Shown here one piece after another: positions 13,974-28,671 of a DNA stretch of 64,000 nt (its first letter is position 1; every line of letters starts with the position of its first letter). Source of the DNA: Methanobacteriota archaeon (lineage in GTDB: Archaea; Thermoplasmatota; Thermoplasmata; SG8-5; DAIRED01); the NCBI GenBank assembly GCA_043799545.1, contig JAZDNO010000005.1, positions 88,313-152,312 of the forward strand, given 5' to 3'. The translations under genes were made by a program, and so were the position numbers. The notes beneath the pieces were generated by a model. That model made no database searches, was not told the origin of the DNA, and saw nothing but the letters and a program-made list of their open reading frames with translations.

Positions 13974-14792
13974 TCACGGGCACTTGTCGATTAGCGCCTT
14001 GCGCCGCACGAGGTTACGCGATATCTCCTCTGGAGACTTGAAATTCTGCTCCGCCTCGGCCAGCAGGCGCACAGCTTCGTGGAGCCCCGCCTTCGTGGGG
14101 TTCGAGATGTCGAGCCCTGCCTTGGAGAACTGAGTCCTCACCATCGCCATCGCGAGCTCCGGGTCGCCGAACGATTCCGTGAAGTCGATTATCATCATGT
14201 CGGCCACGTCCGTCAGGTTGTGCGCTTCCTTCTTCGCGACGGCTTCCGAGCCCTTTGGCATGGCGTCCAAGGATGCAGCCATCTCCGCGATGTTGGAGAA
14301 AAGCCCCTCAACGTTCTCGCCGGTCTTCGCGCTTGAAAGGTAGTGCTGCGCGTGCATGGTGCCAGCAAGGCGGTTTATCTCCTCGTCTGAAACCTGGCGC
14401 TCGCCGAGAAGGTCCACCTTGTTCCCGACGAGGACCGAGGGCACGTTCCCCGCGACCTTCGCAAGTTCGGGGCGCCAGTATTTCTCGATGCTGGCGAGCG
14501 TTTCCTTCCTTGTCAGGTCGAAGACGAAAATCGCTCCCTGGGTTCCGAGATAGCTCTTCGACTGGGTTCCGGTGTACCCCTGCTGGCCAAGGATGTCCCA
14601 TATCATCATCGACATCGAGATTTGGCCTTTTGACCCCTTGACCACGGTCTCCTTCTTCGTTATTTTCGTCCCTATGGTCGTGATGTAGCTGTCGTCGAAC
14701 GAGTCCAGCACGAAACGCCTTATGAGGCTTGTCTTGCCTACTGCGCTGTCGCCGAGCAGCACGATCTTCCTCTTCAGGTCAGGTTGTCCCAT
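13974..14792 (-). CDS. Rab-like small GTPase with C-terminal helical extension
   Basis: G1 GDSAVGKTS, G2 TIG, G3 WDILGQ, G4 NKVD, G5 SAK. Confidence 0.9.
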   Translation of the reverse strand: MGQPDLKRKIVLLGDSAVGKTSLIRRFVLDSFDDSYITTIGTKITKKETVVKGSKGQISMSMMIWDILGQQGYTGTQSKSYLGTQGAIFVFDLTRKETLASIEKYWRPELAKVAGNVPSVLVGNKVDLLGERQVSDEEINRLAGTMHAQHYLSSAKTGENVEGLFSNIAEMAASLDAMPKGSEAVAKKEAHNLTDVADMMIIDFTESFGDPELAMAMVRTQFSKAGLDISNPTKAGLHEAVRLLAEAEQNFKSPEEISRNLVRRKALIDKCP

Positions 14793-22752: not shown

Positions 22753-23802
22753 GTGATTCAAGTATATGGCCCATGGCTATTCGACGGCGAAGAGTTCGTC
22801 GAGGGCGGAATTGCGGTCGAGGGCGGCGTCATCGTCGACGTCTGCGGCTCGCCGCCGGAGGACATCACCCGCCGAGGCATAGTTTTTCCAGCGCTGGTCA
22901 ACGCCCACACCCACATCGGCGACGCCTTCATAAGGCGCGTACCCAAGGGCTCTATAGAATCCATCGTCGCGCCGCCGGACGGATACAAATTCAAGATGCT
23001 GGCAAAGGCCTCGGAAAGGACAATCGTGAATGGCATCTACAAGGCCGCCACGGAGATGGCGGGAACAGGGACTGGGGCGTTCGTGGACTTCAGGGAGGGC
23101 GGCCTTTCGGGGGTCAGGGCTTTGCGCGAAGCGCTGAGCGGGCGGTCTCCAAAAGCCACGGTTCTTGGCCGACCGAAAGGGATGAACTACAATGAAGGCG
23201 AGGTCGCCTCAATCCTCAATGCCGCAGACGGCATAGGAATCTCCAGCGTCAGCGAATGGCGGAAGAGCGACCTCGAAGGAATGTCCTGCCAGGCCCGCAA
23301 GGCGCGCAAGCTGTTTGCGATTCATGCGAGCGAAAGGGTCCGTGAGCCTTTCGAACGGGTCGCAACGCTCGAACCGGATTTCGTCGTCCACATGCTCAAG
23401 GCCAGCCAAAAGGATTTGAAGGATTGCGCCAAAGCCGGAATTCCTGCCGTGGTTTGCCCGCGCAGCAACGCCTTCTTCGGGATGAAGCCATCCGTTCGGA
23501 AGATGCTCGACGCCGGGATAGACGTCGCACTGGGGACGGACAACGCGATGCTGGCAAGGCCCGACATGCTCGCTGAAGCGAGGTTCCTCGCCAGGACGCA
23601 GCGGGACCTCGGTCCGATCGAGATTGCGCGCATTGCGATTTCGGCCCCGAGGAAAGTTTTAAATCTGGAACCTGGGTTAAGGTTGAAGAGGGGAAATCCC
23701 GCCGAATTCGCAGTGCTGGCCGCGGGGCGGGGCGACCCGGCGAGGGCTTTTCTGGCGCCCGGAAAACTCCCGCTCATCGTGCGCGGCGCGAGTGTGAGGT
23801 GA
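22753..23802 (+). CDS. Metal-dependent amidohydrolase (deaminase-like)
   Basis: PALVNAHTHIGD, HASE, LGTDN motifs. Confidence 0.88.
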   Translation: MIQVYGPWLFDGEEFVEGGIAVEGGVIVDVCGSPPEDITRRGIVFPALVNAHTHIGDAFIRRVPKGSIESIVAPPDGYKFKMLAKASERTIVNGIYKAATEMAGTGTGAFVDFREGGLSGVRALREALSGRSPKATVLGRPKGMNYNEGEVASILNAADGIGISSVSEWRKSDLEGMSCQARKARKLFAIHASERVREPFERVATLEPDFVVHMLKASQKDLKDCAKAGIPAVVCPRSNAFFGMKPSVRKMLDAGIDVALGTDNAMLARPDMLAEARFLARTQRDLGPIEIARIAISAPRKVLNLEPGLRLKRGNPAEFAVLAAGRGDPARAFLAPGKLPLIVRGASVR

Positions 23803-23806
23803 GAAC

Positions 23807-25501
23807 GTGGAGGAGAACAAGCTGATGGCGCTGGCCAAGCGCAGGGGTTTTTTCTACCCGGCATTCGAGATATACGGCGGCGTGGCCGGGATGTACGACT
23901 ACGGGCCTCTCGGCGCCTTGCTGAAGCGGAACGTTGCCGACCACTGGCGCAGCCTCTACATCCTGGGCGAGGGTTGCGGCGAGATAGATTCTCCGAACGT
24001 CTCGCCTGAGGCGGTATTCGTGGCATCCGGCCACGTGGCAGAATTCTCCGACTTCGGGGTCCAGTGCGACGGGTGCAAGGAATCCTTCAGAGCCGACCAT
24101 CTGCTAGAAGGCCTGGTGCCGAACCCGGATTCGCTCGATGCGGAGGCACTTTTCGCAGGGCTCCGCGCGCACGGTGTGAAATGCCCCTCCTGCGGGGGAT
24201 CGCTCGGCGAACCGCAGTCGTTCAACCTAATGTTCCAGACAAAAATCGGACCTGGAGATGGAAGGGCTGGCTACCTAAGGCCCGAGACGGCCCAGGCGAT
24301 GTTCTTCAATTTCGGGACGCTCTACCGCCACTTCAGAGAGGCGCTGCCGTTCGGAGTCGTGCAGGTTGGCAAGGGTTTCAGGAACGAGATATCCCCCAGG
24401 CAGGGCATGATACGCCTGCGCGAGTTCAATATGATGGAGGCGGAGATATTTGTCAGACCAGATGACAAATCATGGCCCCGCTTCGACGACGTAAAGGGCG
24501 ACGTTCTCCGCCTGGTCCCCCAAAGCGGCCAAGAGATTTCAGTCACCGCAGCGGAAGCCGCTGAGAGGGGGGTAATCAAGAACGAGGCATTGACATACTT
24601 CGTCGCCCTGACGAGGCGATTCCTTCTGGACGTAGGCGTGGACGACAAGCGCCTCAGGTTCAGGCAGCACCTCAGCGAAGAGATGGCTCACTACGCCTCC
24701 GATTGCTGGGACGCCGAAATCGAGCTCTCCATCGGTTGGACCGAGGCGGTCGGCATTGCAGACCGGGGCAGCTACGACCTGGAGCAGCACATAAAGCATT
24801 CCGGCGCCGACCTGAGGGCGTTCGAGCGCTTCGACCAGCCCGTCGAGACCGAGCGCGATTCGCTCGTTCCGGTCTCCGCAAAGCTCGGTCCGCTTTTTAA
24901 AAAGCGCGCGGCCGAGGTCAAGGAGGCGCTCGCAACGGCAGAGCCATCGGCTATCCAGCCTGACGGCTCGGCAAGACTGAACCTCGGCGGAGACGCAGTC
25001 ACGGTTCCGGCGGACTGCTTCGAGCTCAAGGGGGTCAAGGAGAAGGTCCACGGCCGCAGGTTCGTGCCGCACGTCATCGAGCCGTCATATGGCCTGGACC
25101 GCATCCTGTATTCTGTGCTGGAGCACGCATTCTTCGAGAAGGACGATTACGCAGTGTTGAGGCTGAAGGCGAAGGTTGCGCCTGTGAAGTTCGGTGTCTT
25201 TCCCCTGATGACCAGGGACGGTCTCGATGCGGAGGCTAGAAAAATCGACGCCACGCTGCGCGCGCAGGGCATGGTCACGTATTACGACGACGGCGGCTCG
25301 ATCGGGCGCCGCTACGCGAGGATGGACGAAATCGGGACGCCGTTCTGCATTACATTCGATTACGATTCTTTCCAGGACAAGGCCGTCACCATCCGGGACA
25401 GGGACTCGCAGAAGCAGGCCAGGGTCCCCATAGTTTCTCTGGGCCGGGTTGCGCAGGACCTCCTAGAAAGGGGGCCGGACACCCTACATGGCTGGAAATG
25501 A
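23807..25501 (+). CDS. glyS: Glycine--tRNA ligase (alpha2 type)
   Basis: YDYGPLG, LRPETAQ, FRNEISPRQGMIRLREF, IEPSYG, SIGRRYARMDEIGTP. Confidence 0.97.
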   Translation: MEENKLMALAKRRGFFYPAFEIYGGVAGMYDYGPLGALLKRNVADHWRSLYILGEGCGEIDSPNVSPEAVFVASGHVAEFSDFGVQCDGCKESFRADHLLEGLVPNPDSLDAEALFAGLRAHGVKCPSCGGSLGEPQSFNLMFQTKIGPGDGRAGYLRPETAQAMFFNFGTLYRHFREALPFGVVQVGKGFRNEISPRQGMIRLREFNMMEAEIFVRPDDKSWPRFDDVKGDVLRLVPQSGQEISVTAAEAAERGVIKNEALTYFVALTRRFLLDVGVDDKRLRFRQHLSEEMAHYASDCWDAEIELSIGWTEAVGIADRGSYDLEQHIKHSGADLRAFERFDQPVETERDSLVPVSAKLGPLFKKRAAEVKEALATAEPSAIQPDGSARLNLGGDAVTVPADCFELKGVKEKVHGRRFVPHVIEPSYGLDRILYSVLEHAFFEKDDYAVLRLKAKVAPVKFGVFPLMTRDGLDAEARKIDATLRAQGMVTYYDDGGSIGRRYARMDEIGTPFCITFDYDSFQDKAVTIRDRDSQKQARVPIVSLGRVAQDLLERGPDTLHGWK

Positions 25502-26261
25502 ATCCGTAGAAGATTATCCGTACCGGGCGGAAGCGCACAGGATGGGTATCGCCATTTCCAAGGCGTGCGAGACGGCAACGGGTGGTCGCGATAAAGTCGC
25601 CGTGGCATTTTCCGGCGGGCTCGACAGCGCCCTTCTGGCGTTCATATGCGCGAATCACACCGAAGTTAAGCTCTATGTCGCCGGAAAGCCCGGATGCCAC
25701 GATTTCAGGGCCGCGGAGAGCGCGGCGCGGGCGCTCTCCCTACCGCTTGCCAGGATTGAAATCGAACGGGGCGGTTTGCAGGCCGTCGCCGAGCGGGTCG
25801 CTTCGGCGGTTGATAATCCCGCCCCAATCGAAATCGCCGTCGCGGTGCCTCTCGCATACGTTTGCGGCGCGGCGGTCGAAAGCGCGGTCGTGACCGGGAC
25901 AGGCGCGGACGAGCTTTTCGGCGGGTATGCAAGGTATTCAAGGATGCCCTCCGGGGAGCGGCTCGGCGCCATGCGGTGTGATTACGGAAGATTAAAGGTT
26001 CGAGGGGTCGCGACAGAGGCTAATCTTGCTTCGTCGTATGGGAAAGTGGCGATCCAGCCTTACATGGACCCGGTGGTGGAGCTAGCATTTCGGGAGGTCG
26101 GCATCGGCGCCCATTTCTGGAACGGCCGCCCGAAGGCGTTGCTCAGGTACGCGGCGGTTTCCTGCGGGCTACCGATGGAGCTGGCCATGCGTCCGAAGAA
26201 GGCCGCGCAATACGGCAGCGGAGTGGCACGGATGCTGTCCAAGGCGCGCGGCAATTCATGA
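25488..26261 (+). CDS. Asparagine synthase C-terminal (synthetase) domain protein, no glutaminase domain
   Basis: AFSGGLDS, TGTGADELFGGY, K.LLR, RPKKAAQYGSG. Confidence 0.88.
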   Translation: MAGNESVEDYPYRAEAHRMGIAISKACETATGGRDKVAVAFSGGLDSALLAFICANHTEVKLYVAGKPGCHDFRAAESAARALSLPLARIEIERGGLQAVAERVASAVDNPAPIEIAVAVPLAYVCGAAVESAVVTGTGADELFGGYARYSRMPSGERLGAMRCDYGRLKVRGVATEANLASSYGKVAIQPYMDPVVELAFREVGIGAHFWNGRPKALLRYAAVSCGLPMELAMRPKKAAQYGSGVARMLSKARGNS

Positions 26262-26325
26262 TGATTCTCTCATGCGGAAAGAATATTAAAGAGCGAGACG
26301 TTATCTTGAACACAAGGAATTGGCC

Positions 26326-27141
26326 ATGGAATTGAAGCGGATAAAGCGCAAGGCCCTTCTTCTCGGGGACGGGGCCGTTGGGAAGACCAGCCTAATTCGC
26401 AAGTTCGTCACTGACAAGTTCGATGACAAGTACATCACCACCATCGGCACGAAGATAACCAAGAAGGAGATGGCCTTCAAGGAGCTGAACGTTGAGCTGA
26501 CTCTGATGATGTGGGACGTTCTAGGCCAGAAAGGGTACACTTCGATCCAGTCATCCAGCTACCGCGGGGCGGAGGGGGCGATAATGGTGTGCGACCTGAC
26601 ACGCGCTGAGACCTTGCGCAGCCTGGAAGAGTACTGGATGCCGGAACTCGCGAAGGTCGTCGGCGACGTTCCGCTGGTATTCGTGGGGAACAAGGTCGAC
26701 CTAATCGAGCAGAGGCAGGTCGAGGAGGACGAACTGGCTGCCTTCGCTGGACGCCATTCGGCACCGTTTTACATGAGCAGCGCCCGCACGGGCGAACGCG
26801 TCGAGGACCTCTTCAAAAAGCTCGGCGAACTTGTTCTAGCTGACAGGATGGATGTGAGCGTCGAGGGTGGAGACATAAAGGAAATAAAGACAATTGTGGA
26901 CGCCACGGATTTCGTGATAATGGATTTCTGCAAGTCTTACGCCGACCAGGAGACAGCCATGGCCATCGTCCGAACCCAGTTCGCGAAGGCGGAACTGGAC
27001 GTCAAGGCTCCGACCAGGCAGGGCTTGCTGAAGGCTATCGATTTGCTGGCGGAAGCGGAAAAAGGGTTCAAGGACGAGCCCGCCATTTTTCAGAACCGCA
27101 TGCGCCGCAGACAGACCGTAGACCACGCAGGGGGCCATTGA
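26326..27141 (+). CDS. Rab-like small GTPase with C-terminal helical extension
   Basis: GDGAVGKTS, TIG, WDVLGQ, NKVD, SAR. Confidence 0.9.
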   Translation: MELKRIKRKALLLGDGAVGKTSLIRKFVTDKFDDKYITTIGTKITKKEMAFKELNVELTLMMWDVLGQKGYTSIQSSSYRGAEGAIMVCDLTRAETLRSLEEYWMPELAKVVGDVPLVFVGNKVDLIEQRQVEEDELAAFAGRHSAPFYMSSARTGERVEDLFKKLGELVLADRMDVSVEGGDIKEIKTIVDATDFVIMDFCKSYADQETAMAIVRTQFAKAELDVKAPTRQGLLKAIDLLAEAEKGFKDEPAIFQNRMRRRQTVDHAGGH

Positions 27142-27684
27142 ATGACAGGCAGGAAGATAATGAAGAAGATTTGCCTTCTGGGCGACGGCGCCGTCGGGAA
27201 GACCACGCTCATCAAGAAGTTCGTGTACGACAAGTTCGACGACAAATACATCATGACCTTCGGGACAAAGGTGACGAAGAAGGGCGTGTGTCTGACCACC
27301 GGCGGTGTCGATTTCGACCTCACCATGATGATTTGGGACATCCTCGGCCAGCGCGTTCACGATGCCCTCCACGCGACATATTACCAGGGCGCCGCTGGGG
27401 CGCTGCTGGTCTGCGACGTGACGCGCCGCGAGACCCTGGCAGGGCTTGAGGAGTGGGCCCGTGTGTTCAGGGGCGTCTGCCCCGAGGCGCCGATAATATT
27501 CCTCGGGAACAAGTCCGACCTGAAGGAGCAGATCCAGGTGACCGAGGCGGACCTGGGCGCGCTGGCGTCCAAATATGGCACAATACATTTCATGACGAGC
27601 GCAAAGACGGGCGACCACGTCGAGGAGTCGTTCCTGCGGCTCGGCAACCTGATTGCCGAGAGCATGCTCCGAAGGGAGGTGTAG
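27142..27684 (+). CDS. Rab-like small GTPase (G domain only)
   Basis: GDGAVGKTT, TFG, WDILGQ, NKSD, SAK; 180 aa. Confidence 0.9.
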   Translation: MTGRKIMKKICLLGDGAVGKTTLIKKFVYDKFDDKYIMTFGTKVTKKGVCLTTGGVDFDLTMMIWDILGQRVHDALHATYYQGAAGALLVCDVTRRETLAGLEEWARVFRGVCPEAPIIFLGNKSDLKEQIQVTEADLGALASKYGTIHFMTSAKTGDHVEESFLRLGNLIAESMLRREV

Positions 27685-27714
27685 GAGCTGCCGGACCAGA
27701 TAAGCTTCTTCGTT

Positions 27715-28671
27715 ATGTCCGGCGAGGCGCTCAAGAGCCTCGGGGACGAGCTGCAGATATTGGCGGGCGAAACGTCCGCAAGGGAGACTATCGAACGGTA
27801 CGGATTCAGGTGCGGGGAGGGCCTGGCGCAGAAGCTCGGCCTTGGCATAGTGAACTCGGTCGAACTCCGAGACCTCATTCCTGACCTGCTGATCGAGACT
27901 GGCCTGGGTCGGTCGCGCGCCGTGGACGTTTCAGAAGACAGGGTCGTCATAGATTTCGAGGACTCGGTCGAGGCCGGGGCGGTGGGAAAAGTAGCGGTGC
28001 CCTCATGCAGGTTCACCAGCGGATACCTTTCAGGGCTGCTGTCCTCGTTGTTAGACAGGCGCTTCGAAGGCACGGAGGAGACTTGTATAGCTGCCGGAGA
28101 GTCTTCATGCAGGCACGTTTTCACGCCTTCGAAGGCGGTTTTCAAACCCGCCAACGAGGCCCCCGTAGCGAGCGAATGCAAGTATTGTTTGAACGAGGCC
28201 ACCGGGTACCTCGTCAAGGAGGAGACGGGGGAGAAGAGCTACGATGTGTTCACGGAGAATGTCACCCACGGCCACCAGGGGCTCTGCATCACGAGGGATT
28301 TTCCGACGAAGATAAGGAAGAGGTACGGGCTGGAGAGGACCCCGATAATATGGCTGTCGACGGCCGAGACGACGGAGGCGACGGTCGCCCCGCAGAACCT
28401 TTCCGCGCTCTACTACCAGATAGAGAGTTTCCTGAAGAAGAGCGAAAAAGGAATAGTTCTATTGTCGGGCATGGAATACATGATTTCGCAGAACTCCTAT
28501 CAGAGCGTCCTTAAGTTCATACAGCTCCTAAACGAGCTCATAGCGGTGAGGGGCGCAATCCTGCTCGTGTCCCTGAGCCCCCTGACTCTCGACGAGAAGG
28601 ACCTCAAGACCCTGGAGAGGGAGCTGGAGGCTTTCGTCCCCAACCAAAAGGTAGTCAACATGATGGAGTGA
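27715..28671 (+). CDS. V4R-domain + DUF835 protein
   Basis: V4R: C.FTSGYLSG...ETCIAAGESSCRH. DUF835: GLCITRDFP, IIWLS, LLSGMEYMISQN, LDEKDLKTLERE. Confidence 0.82.
   Translation: MSGEALKSLGDELQILAGETSARETIERYGFRCGEGLAQKLGLGIVNSVELRDLIPDLLIETGLGRSRAVDVSEDRVVIDFEDSVEAGAVGKVAVPSCRFTSGYLSGLLSSLLDRRFEGTEETCIAAGESSCRHVFTPSKAVFKPANEAPVASECKYCLNEATGYLVKEETGEKSYDVFTENVTHGHQGLCITRDFPTKIRKRYGLERTPIIWLSTAETTEATVAPQNLSALYYQIESFLKKSEKGIVLLSGMEYMISQNSYQSVLKFIQLLNELIAVRGAILLVSLSPLTLDEKDLKTLERELEAFVPNQKVVNMME

Follow-up and report, generated by a model that had tools for sequence, protein, structure and literature searches.

The window analysed here, a stretch of 64,000 nucleotides (nt) from the assembly GCA_043799545.1 of an uncultured Thermoplasmatota archaeon (contig JAZDNO010000005.1, positions 88,313 to 152,312 of the forward strand), carries on its plus strand three co-oriented genes that encode two Rab-like small GTPases, named gA and gB, and a protein in which a V4R domain is fused to a DUF835 domain. 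The three genes, referred to below as the cassette, lie between a 64-nt gap, which follows an Asn-synthase-like gene, and a convergent gene downstream. The source genome is an assembly of 2.06 Mb in 31 contigs and is 94% complete. Close homologues of all three proteins were found only in metagenome-assembled genomes labelled Thermoplasmatota, Thermoplasmata, 'Methanomassiliicoccales archaeon UBA...' or Proteinoplasmatales. Among species-representative genomes, the V4R-DUF835 locus nearest in sequence is L012 at 71% identity; homologues from metagenomes come as close as 86%.

Gene organisation and domain content of the cassette

The first gene, gA, encodes a 'long' Rab-like GTPase of 271 amino acids (aa) and extends from 26326 to 27141. 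The ATG at 26326 was taken as its start rather than the TTG at 26320, since homologues begin with MELKR or MEVK at the same Met. Its stop codon occupies positions 27139-27141 and no spacer follows: the ATG of gB, a 'short' Rab-like GTPase of 180 aa (27142..27684), begins at 27142, the base right after it. After a gap of 30 nt follows the V4R-DUF835 gene (27715..28671, 318 aa). The coordinates of a first-pass annotation, which had the GTPase genes abutting at 27141/27142, the fusion 30 nt later and a TATA-like element near 26283, hold in all three respects. The element, ATATTAAA, was read from the sequence at 26283..26290 on the plus strand, within the 64-nt gap and 36-43 nt before the gA start, and is a possible archaeal promoter element. 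A sigma-70 promoter scan returned 0 sites, a result uninformative here because the model is not applicable to archaea, and terminator-like sites showed no excess over shuffled sequence.

Both GTPases matched Pfam Ras (PF00071, cut-off 21.6 bits), gA at 3e-39 over residues 9-169 (134.7 bits) and gB at 1.5e-35 (122.6 bits), and both scored above the cut-off of TIGR00231 small_GTP (78.6 and 70.9 bits, respectively; cut-off 42.5). The G1 motif GDGAVGKT, the switch-I Thr, the G3 motif WDxLGQ with the catalytic Gln, the G4 motif NKxD and the G5 motif SAK/SAR are kept in gA and gB, and these motifs are invariant in both GTPase family alignments, confirming the two complete Ras-superfamily G domains with catalytic Gln reported previously. 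The two proteins are thus predicted to be nucleotide-dependent switches with intact catalytic motifs. The best solved relatives of gB were the Thorarchaeota Rab 7ezb (1.6e-28) and then Sec4, Rab27B, Rab21 and Rab2A, which bears out the Rab-like character that had been ascribed to the GTPases, and 'Rab family GTPase' is the NCBI name of several homologues. 'Rab-like' is an apt description on these sequence comparisons; the evidence falls short of placing the two in the Rab family proper, because neither protein carries a C-terminal Cys prenylation motif (CC, CxC or CaaX; gA ends in ...DHAGGH and gB in ...LRREV). gB is the orthologue of the GTPase that is encoded directly upstream of V4R-DUF835 in other genomes.

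gA is composed of a G domain (residues 1-172), a low-confidence linker and a C-terminal four-helix domain (residues 190-267, nt 26893-27126). In its AlphaFold2 (AF2) model (mean predicted local distance difference test, pLDDT, 88.7) the C-terminal domain consists of helices 190-204, 208-221, 231-245 and 251-267 and has no strands; as it is not a Roadblock domain in this model, identification of gA as a Rag-type GTPase was rejected. The five long paralogues in the source genome all retain this domain. Among 1.84 billion representatives it gave 229 matches at E <= 0.001, almost exclusively at the end of GTPases of approximately 265-300 aa; the shorter matches, which carry the domain at their own C-terminus, look like gene fragments. 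It had no Pfam match, no language-model neighbour and no sequence relative in the PDB, and a shape search of the Atlas returned GTPase clusters alone. A stand-alone long-form paralogue of gA with the same C-terminal domain was located outside the operon at 13974..14792 on the minus strand by hidden Markov model (HMM) matches of both the G domain and the C-terminal domain, in agreement with the third GTPase paralogue that had been noted 12 kb away. It shows 55% identity to gA over 264 aa and, in the tree described below, branches apart from the cassette clade.

The third protein matched Pfam V4R (PF02830) at residues 78-137 (6.7e-10, 39.4 bits, cut-off 31) and Pfam DUF835 (PF05763) at residues 171-304 (5.6e-33, 114 bits, cut-off 33.1). 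Its AF2 model showed two domains (mean pLDDT 89.3), which were delimited with the model, Foldseek and VIA-align as a V4R domain at residues 1-145 (nt 27715-28149, plus strand) and a DUF835 pseudo-KaiC domain at residues 160-310 (nt 28192-28644, plus strand).

The closest folds to the V4R domain were the phenol-sensor domains of MopR and PoxR (Z 18-19, root-mean-square deviation (rmsd) 2.2-2.5 Å over 137-142 residues, 19-26% identity), followed by the MJ1460 V4R protein and Thorarchaeota TRAPPC3, both with Z 14.8 (the latter, 7yh3_D, with rmsd 2.8 Å over 138 residues), and by mammalian and yeast Bet3/TPC6 with Z 13.4-14.3 (1wc9 and 1sz7, Z 14.2-14.3). The aligned Bet3-family chains include ones from TRAPP-Ypt1 (3cue, 7kmt) and TRAPPII-Ypt32 complexes, and the Foldseek comparison with the TRAPP Bet3 fold gave an E-value of 3e-6 and template modelling (TM) scores by target of 0.66-0.71. 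The modelled V4R domain thus shares a fold superfamily with TRAPPC3/Bet3, part of a eukaryotic Rab exchange factor.

In the family alignment C33, C98 and E121 are invariant, and C124 and C132 are at least 90% conserved. The spacing C98-x22-E121-x2-C124-x7-C132 aligned without gaps to MopR and PoxR in weak phmmer alignments covering residues 80-138, and in the MopR alignment, likewise weak, C98, E121, C124 and C132 fall on residues 155, 178, 181 and 189, the presumed zinc ligands of MopR. Both the fold and the conserved Cys cluster at this putative metal site place the domain among V4R domains. Zinc sites have been described in PoxR and Thor-TRAPPC3, together with ligand cavities across the V4R/Bet3 superfamily (Tran et al., PMC10933270), and homology of V4R and Bet3, with V4R as ancestor of Bet3, was proposed by Podar et al. 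2008 with GTPases unmentioned (PMC2253512).

The DUF835 region (residues 150-318) was aligned structurally with FlaH/ArlH (Z 13.3-13.6), the CII domain of KaiC (Z 13.3) and the RecA-superfamily ATPase PH0284 (Z 13.2), supporting the KaiC/RecA-like fold assigned to it in the first-pass annotation. The Walker A motif [AG]xxxxGK[ST] was present in 0 of 71 family members; the KaiC of the source genome itself has GPPGTGKT. Comparison of the V4R-DUF835 profile with that KaiC by hhalign gave no significant match, and the KaiC kinship of DUF835 therefore rests on structure and on the literature, in which DUF835 counts as an inactivated KaiC (iKaiC) that serves archaeal response regulators for output (Galperin et al. 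2018, PMC5847659).

Conservation of the linkage in other genomes

One genome per species was searched with the V4R-DUF835 family alignment. This species-level scan yielded 37 loci, 34 of which encode V4R+DUF835; two of these start at a contig edge, leaving 32 informative loci. A Rab-like GTPase gene was found directly upstream and on the same strand in 31 of the 32, a recurrence of gene order in loci from other species that is not accounted for by chance. Likewise, all six metagenomic V4R-DUF835 homologues retrieved (36-59% identity) adjoin one to three Ras-family genes, with the GTPase directly upstream in five and directly downstream in one (L009, inverted order), and the remaining neighbours all differ among the six loci. 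The pair was found in more than ten different genomic contexts. The first-pass annotation had made its reading depend on a linkage conserved in relatives, and such conservation is what the neighbourhood analysis found.

Two main architectures were distinguished. Type I, the kind present in the window (19 loci), is formed by a long GTPase, a short GTPase and V4R-DUF835, and type II (12 loci) by a short GTPase and V4R-DUF835, mostly followed by a V4R-only gene; mixed arrangements occur in L011 (G-G-VD-G-V, where G is a GTPase, VD a V4R-DUF835 and V a V4R-only gene) and in L030 (G-VD-G-V). The spacing is operon-like: the gap between the two GTPase genes of type I ranges from -29 to +18 nt, and 25-115 nt separate the stop codon of the GTPase from the first V4R-DUF835 residue in the alignment. 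Judged from these architectures, the conserved core is one short GTPase together with V4R-DUF835, the long GTPase being an addition in one subclade. A relative's cassette (L008:6073-9051) continues with V4R-only, DUF8166 and DUF87 (HerA-like ATPase) genes, and a ubiquitin-like/E2/JAB gene set lies upstream of it on the opposite strand.

In a quick maximum-likelihood tree of 62 G domains (Thermoplasmatota paralogues only, midpoint-rooted, with support from the Shimodaira-Hasegawa-like approximate likelihood ratio test, SH-aLRT, and long branches flagged), the long GTPases of the cassettes formed one clade (SH-aLRT 94) and the short ones another (88-91), with internal branching alike. The type II GTPases branched below both clades. 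As the other GTPase paralogues of the source genome fell outside both, the topology fits vertical inheritance of the operon as a unit, and it fits an origin of the long/short pair by duplication. When 401 genomes drawn from the phylum were searched with a profile, 30 of them, the source genome among these, gave full-length V4R-DUF835 matches; in several families every searched genome had a match (6/6, 5/5 and 2/2), and in others none did.

Sixteen loci, that of the window included, share a longer syntenic block consisting of an amidohydrolase, a 279-aa gene, glycine-tRNA ligase (GlyRS), an Asn-synthase-like gene and then the cassette. No other context of the cassette has the GlyRS/Asn-synthase-like neighbourhood, which is for that reason not regarded as a required part of the cassette. 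The region ahead of the cassette in the window (22753-26261) comprises an amidohydrolase, the glycine-tRNA ligase (23807-25501, plus strand; NCBIfam TIGR00389, 8.6e-201) and the Asn-synthase-like PP-loop protein (25488-26261, plus strand; Pfam Asn_synthase, 1.4e-22), the last two overlapping by 14 nt; both are context and not cassette members.

Related GTPase and KaiC-family loci of the source genome

Two further cassettes were located in the source genome. The one on contig C28 (18574-20336; L001:4574-6336) consists of a long GTPase, a short GTPase and a V4R-only protein, and the one on contig C6 (6947-8828; L002:4947-6828) of a GTPase with a possible N-terminal extension and a V4R-DUF835 protein, followed by a PKD-domain protein. 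According to the family HMM, three of the four V4R genes of this family in the genome stand directly behind a GTPase gene.

No Roadblock gene was found near the cassette; the three Robl_LC7 matches of the genome are on contigs C18 and C29, in accordance with the earlier statement that no Roadblock/MglB gene is adjacent. An MglAB module was discarded on the lack of an adjacent Roadblock/LC7 (MglB) gene, and an ArvABC module because none of the three cassette proteins matches DUF2073 or DUF2072. No Pfam-annotated longin gene was present among the neighbours listed for the window and the homologue loci.

Giant DUF11/Ig-like surface proteins adjoin Rab-like GTPase genes at two places of the source genome, one of 1588 aa after the C28 cassette (C28:20270-25036; L001:6270-11000) and one of 1082 aa beside a long GTPase on contig C10 (199168-202416; L004:6168-9416). 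Both end in a transmembrane helix and a homologous cytoplasmic domain of approximately 120 aa. This tail domain is present in about 19 proteins of the genome, including STAND AAA_16-TPR proteins, a DUF835-TPR protein and stand-alone forms, and a stand-alone copy gave a sub-threshold Robl_LC7 match (E 0.0086, 16.2 bits, cut-off 23). As a lead from sequence similarity, these paralogous GTPase loci, and not the cassette of the window, may have Roadblock-like partners.

DUF835 gave 15 matches of varied architectures in the source genome, and the domain stands behind REC, PAS, TPR, isoleucine-tRNA ligase (IleRS) and DnaA-like modules both here and in archaea generally. On contig C18 (60398-66688; L006:3398-9688, minus strand) a CHASE4-HAMP sensor, a KaiC-like-GTPase fusion, a Roadblock/LC7 protein, two small open reading frames, a DUF835 protein and a true KaiC are encoded together. 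The fusion (382-420 aa) joins a KaiC-like domain that lacks Walker A to an Arf/Ras-like GTPase, and its family comprises at least 205 clusters from Thermoplasmatota, Asgard archaea (Freyarchaeum, Jordarchaeum, Lokiarchaeia) and Archaeoglobaceae. Since both domains are joined in one protein, the family provides independent evidence, from domain architecture, of a joint role of KaiC-fold domains and small GTPases in archaeal cells.

Among the remaining DUF835 proteins, an isoleucine-tRNA ligase of 1639 aa (C12:21475-26394, L049, minus strand; TIGR00392, 2.5e-242) carries HHH, TPR and a C-terminal DUF835. Frames of approximately 1350-1465 aa ending in DUF835 were found in many Thermoplasmatota genomes, and on account of this recurrence the pseudo-KaiC network may extend to a housekeeping synthetase. 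A second protein, of 732 aa (C24:80932-83130, L050), contains a bacterial-type DnaA AAA+ module (TIGR00362, 3.7e-97, residues 306-566), unexpected in an archaeon, and then DUF835.

Proposed function and comparison with known systems

That the GTPases and the V4R-DUF835 protein are functionally coupled is strongly supported by the tight and conserved gene order across many contexts. With the pairing persisting across the phylum in many contexts, the proteins very probably form one signalling module. The first-pass annotation had proposed that a ligand-sensing V4R-DUF835 protein acts as regulator or effector of the GTPase pair; the coupling itself stands, and the choice between these two roles is inseparable with the present sequence and structure data.

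In the explanation considered best, the three genes would be one operon encoding a cytosolic signalling module, in which the V4R-pseudoKaiC protein would be the dedicated partner of the short GTPase. Its V4R domain, zinc-stabilised and similar to MopR/PoxR, probably dimeric and ligand-binding, would sense a small molecule. DUF835, devoid of a P-loop, would act as a protein-protein adaptor that docks on other proteins, probably directed to the KaiC-type networks that are expanded in the source genome. The V4R-pseudoKaiC protein would then set or read the nucleotide state of the adjacent short GTPase, as exchange factor, GTPase-activating protein (GAP) or scaffold, and in type I cassettes the long GTPase would cooperate with the short one via its extra helical domain. 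Taken jointly, that is, with the operon as signalling module, the dedicated partner, the ligand input, the coupling to the nucleotide state and the gA-gB cooperation all included, this explanation is judged to have somewhat better than an even chance of being correct.

Several observations weigh against it. One locus among the 32, L029, has 6 kb of upstream DNA without a GTPase gene. The sixteen loci with the inherited longer block count as one witness and not as sixteen. On contig C30 (72322-73689; L003:5322-6689, minus strand) a short and a long GTPase gene abut without any V4R gene, and the V4R-DUF835 family is much smaller than that of the long GTPases, so that the GTPases do not always need a V4R partner. 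A DUF192 protein is encoded after the C30 pair, whose gene order is the reverse of that in the window. The ratio of GTPase to V4R genes is not constant (2:1, 1:2, 3:2), for which reason no single complex is implied. Contact between the proteins is predicted from gene order, which does not reveal the direction of signalling. A complex prediction of gB with V4R-DUF835, made with alignments of 30 rows each, scored 0.08 against a mark of 0.32 and was counted neither way.

It is possible, if doubtful, that GTP-bound gB, set by regulators encoded elsewhere, recruits the V4R-pseudoKaiC protein as its effector. The latter would relay the state to KaiC-type ATPases or DUF835-binding partners, and V4R would serve for dimerisation or as a lipid/ligand co-input. 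Such a role would agree with the use of DUF835 as output or adaptor behind REC, PAS, TPR, IleRS and DnaA-like modules, with the direct fusion of KaiC-like domains to small GTPases in a wide family, and with the Roadblock-like candidates encoded elsewhere in the genome, which could be the true regulators. However, the studied operon partners of prokaryotic small GTPases, MglB and, as proposed, ArvB/C, are regulators (PMC4316618, PMC10927574), and V4R domains are typical input sensors.

A more specific form of the regulator role, in which the V4R domain is a ligand-gated exchange factor, or the core of one, for the adjacent Rab-like GTPase and hence a forerunner of TRAPP-Rab in a non-Asgard archaeon, is considered unlikely. 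The fold shared with Bet3 makes it attractive; the closer likeness to ligand sensors and the lack of an annotated longin gene nearby weaken it. If it were true, the functional pairing of the Bet3 fold with Rab would be older than eukaryotes and would have been rebuilt later with longin subunits, and through the pseudo-KaiC domain the switch would be linked with the KaiC signalling network of archaea.

A sensor of amino-acid or translation status, that is, a Rag-like heterodimer of long and short GTPases tied to aminoacyl-tRNA synthetases through V4R-DUF835, is quite improbable. The cassette stands directly behind GlyRS and the Asn-synthase-like gene in the 16 syntenic loci, DUF835 is fused to IleRS in the source genome, with DUF835-ending frames of similar length in many genomes of the phylum, and gA gave a weak, sub-threshold Gtr1_RagA match (21.4 bits, cut-off 22), but this match lies under the much stronger Ras match, the GlyRS neighbourhood is missing from the other cassette contexts, and the C-terminal domain of gA is modelled as all-helical and not as the Rag-dimerising Roadblock domain.

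Very little probability is given to a conflict or defence system in which a V4R sensor and NTPase partners answer an infection-derived small molecule. Predicted immune systems that combine V4R domains with ParA, TIR and HEPN partners are described in a 2026 preprint (10.64898/2026.10.19.760177). Against this, none of the three proteins matched any PADLOC model, the cassette is devoid of an effector domain (nuclease, TIR or pore), its neighbours are housekeeping genes, and the cassette clades, complete within families, give the appearance of vertical inheritance. A conserved synteny with no functional interaction behind it is highly improbable as well: part of the conservation in the 16 loci of the longer block is inherited gene order, but the pair recurs in its more than ten unrelated contexts, once inverted and as paralogous cassettes in one genome, and the genes abut or overlap while the neighbours outside the pair are unconserved.

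The GTPase/V4R-DUF835 pair is a real, conserved module and is apparently undescribed among prokaryotic systems of small GTPases and partners. No description of it was found in the literature, in which a mention in Makarova et al. 2017 (mBio, KaiC hubs) is possible. Surkont and Pereira-Leal 2016 reported single Rab-like sequences, one from Aciduliprofundum and one from a Thermoplasmatales archaeon, and no mention of genomic context or neighbours was found in that article. For the archaeal Rup group 2, Wuichet and Sogaard-Andersen 2014 detected no conserved neighbours (PMC4316618). Archaeal Ras-superfamily GTPases are known mostly as sequences and most have no known partner; for Asgard MK-D1 the partners are not guessable from gene order (PMC10933270). 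A fixed, operon-encoded partner of a Rab-like GTPase across a phylum offers a concrete pair to express and assay. The sensor domain of this partner is a member of the fold superfamily from which the Bet3 subunits of TRAPP arose, and the module thereby makes testable which role the V4R/Bet3 fold had before TRAPP, and whether already with GTPases.

The cassette resembles TRAPP with Rab1/Ypt1 and Rab11/Ypt32, and Thorarchaeota TRAPPC3, in that a Rab-like GTPase is paired with a V4R/Bet3-fold protein, the model aligning over 127-146 residues with Bet3, TPC6 and Thor-TRAPPC3 (Z 13.4-14.8). It differs from them in having no Pfam TRAPP_Bet3 match (E <= 0.01) and 12-17% identity to Bet3 chains, in a V4R domain that is nearer to MopR/PoxR (Z 18-19) and keeps the residues of their putative zinc site, in the absence of annotated nearby genes for longin subunits (Bet5/Trs23), which in TRAPP form much of the Rab-binding surface, and in the fusion to a pseudo-KaiC domain, of which TRAPP has none. 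In Asgard MK-D1, operons that join GTPase genes to TRAPPC3, Roadblock or longin genes are generally lacking (Tran et al. 2024, PMC10933270), whereas the GTPase/V4R linkage described here is operonic.

MglA-MglB, the actinobacterial conservons CvnA-D, Rup group 1 and the Haloferax ArvA-ArvB-ArvC likewise combine a GTPase with a dedicated, lineage-conserved operon partner (PMC4316618, PMC10927574); in the ArvA-ArvB-ArvC vesiculation module, DUF2073 and DUF2072 partners lie downstream of an Arf-like GTPase (PMC10927574). The partner in the present cassette is V4R-pseudoKaiC and not Roadblock/MglB, DUF742, DUF2073 or DUF2072. In addition, its GTPases, whose G3 motif is a complete DxxGQ, find their best-scoring matches among Rab structures and not in MglA or Arf, and they are two in tandem, one with a private helical domain.

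As in MopR, PoxR and DmpR, activators of the NtrC family, a sensor domain precedes a P-loop-fold domain and the Cys/Glu spacing is the same. The downstream domain is here of KaiC/RecA type without a P-loop, in contrast to the active AAA+ sigma-54 activator domain of those proteins, no DNA-binding domain is present, and the partner genes are GTPases. Finally, REC-DUF835 proteins in Methanomicrobia and Thermoplasmata are an example of the use of DUF835 as a signalling output (PMC5847659). The V4R-DUF835 protein shares with these iKaiC/DUF835 output domains the employment of an inactivated KaiC for signalling and differs from them in its V4R input and its Rab-like GTPase neighbourhood, and the module connects small GTPases with the proposed KaiC-type signalling hubs of archaea.

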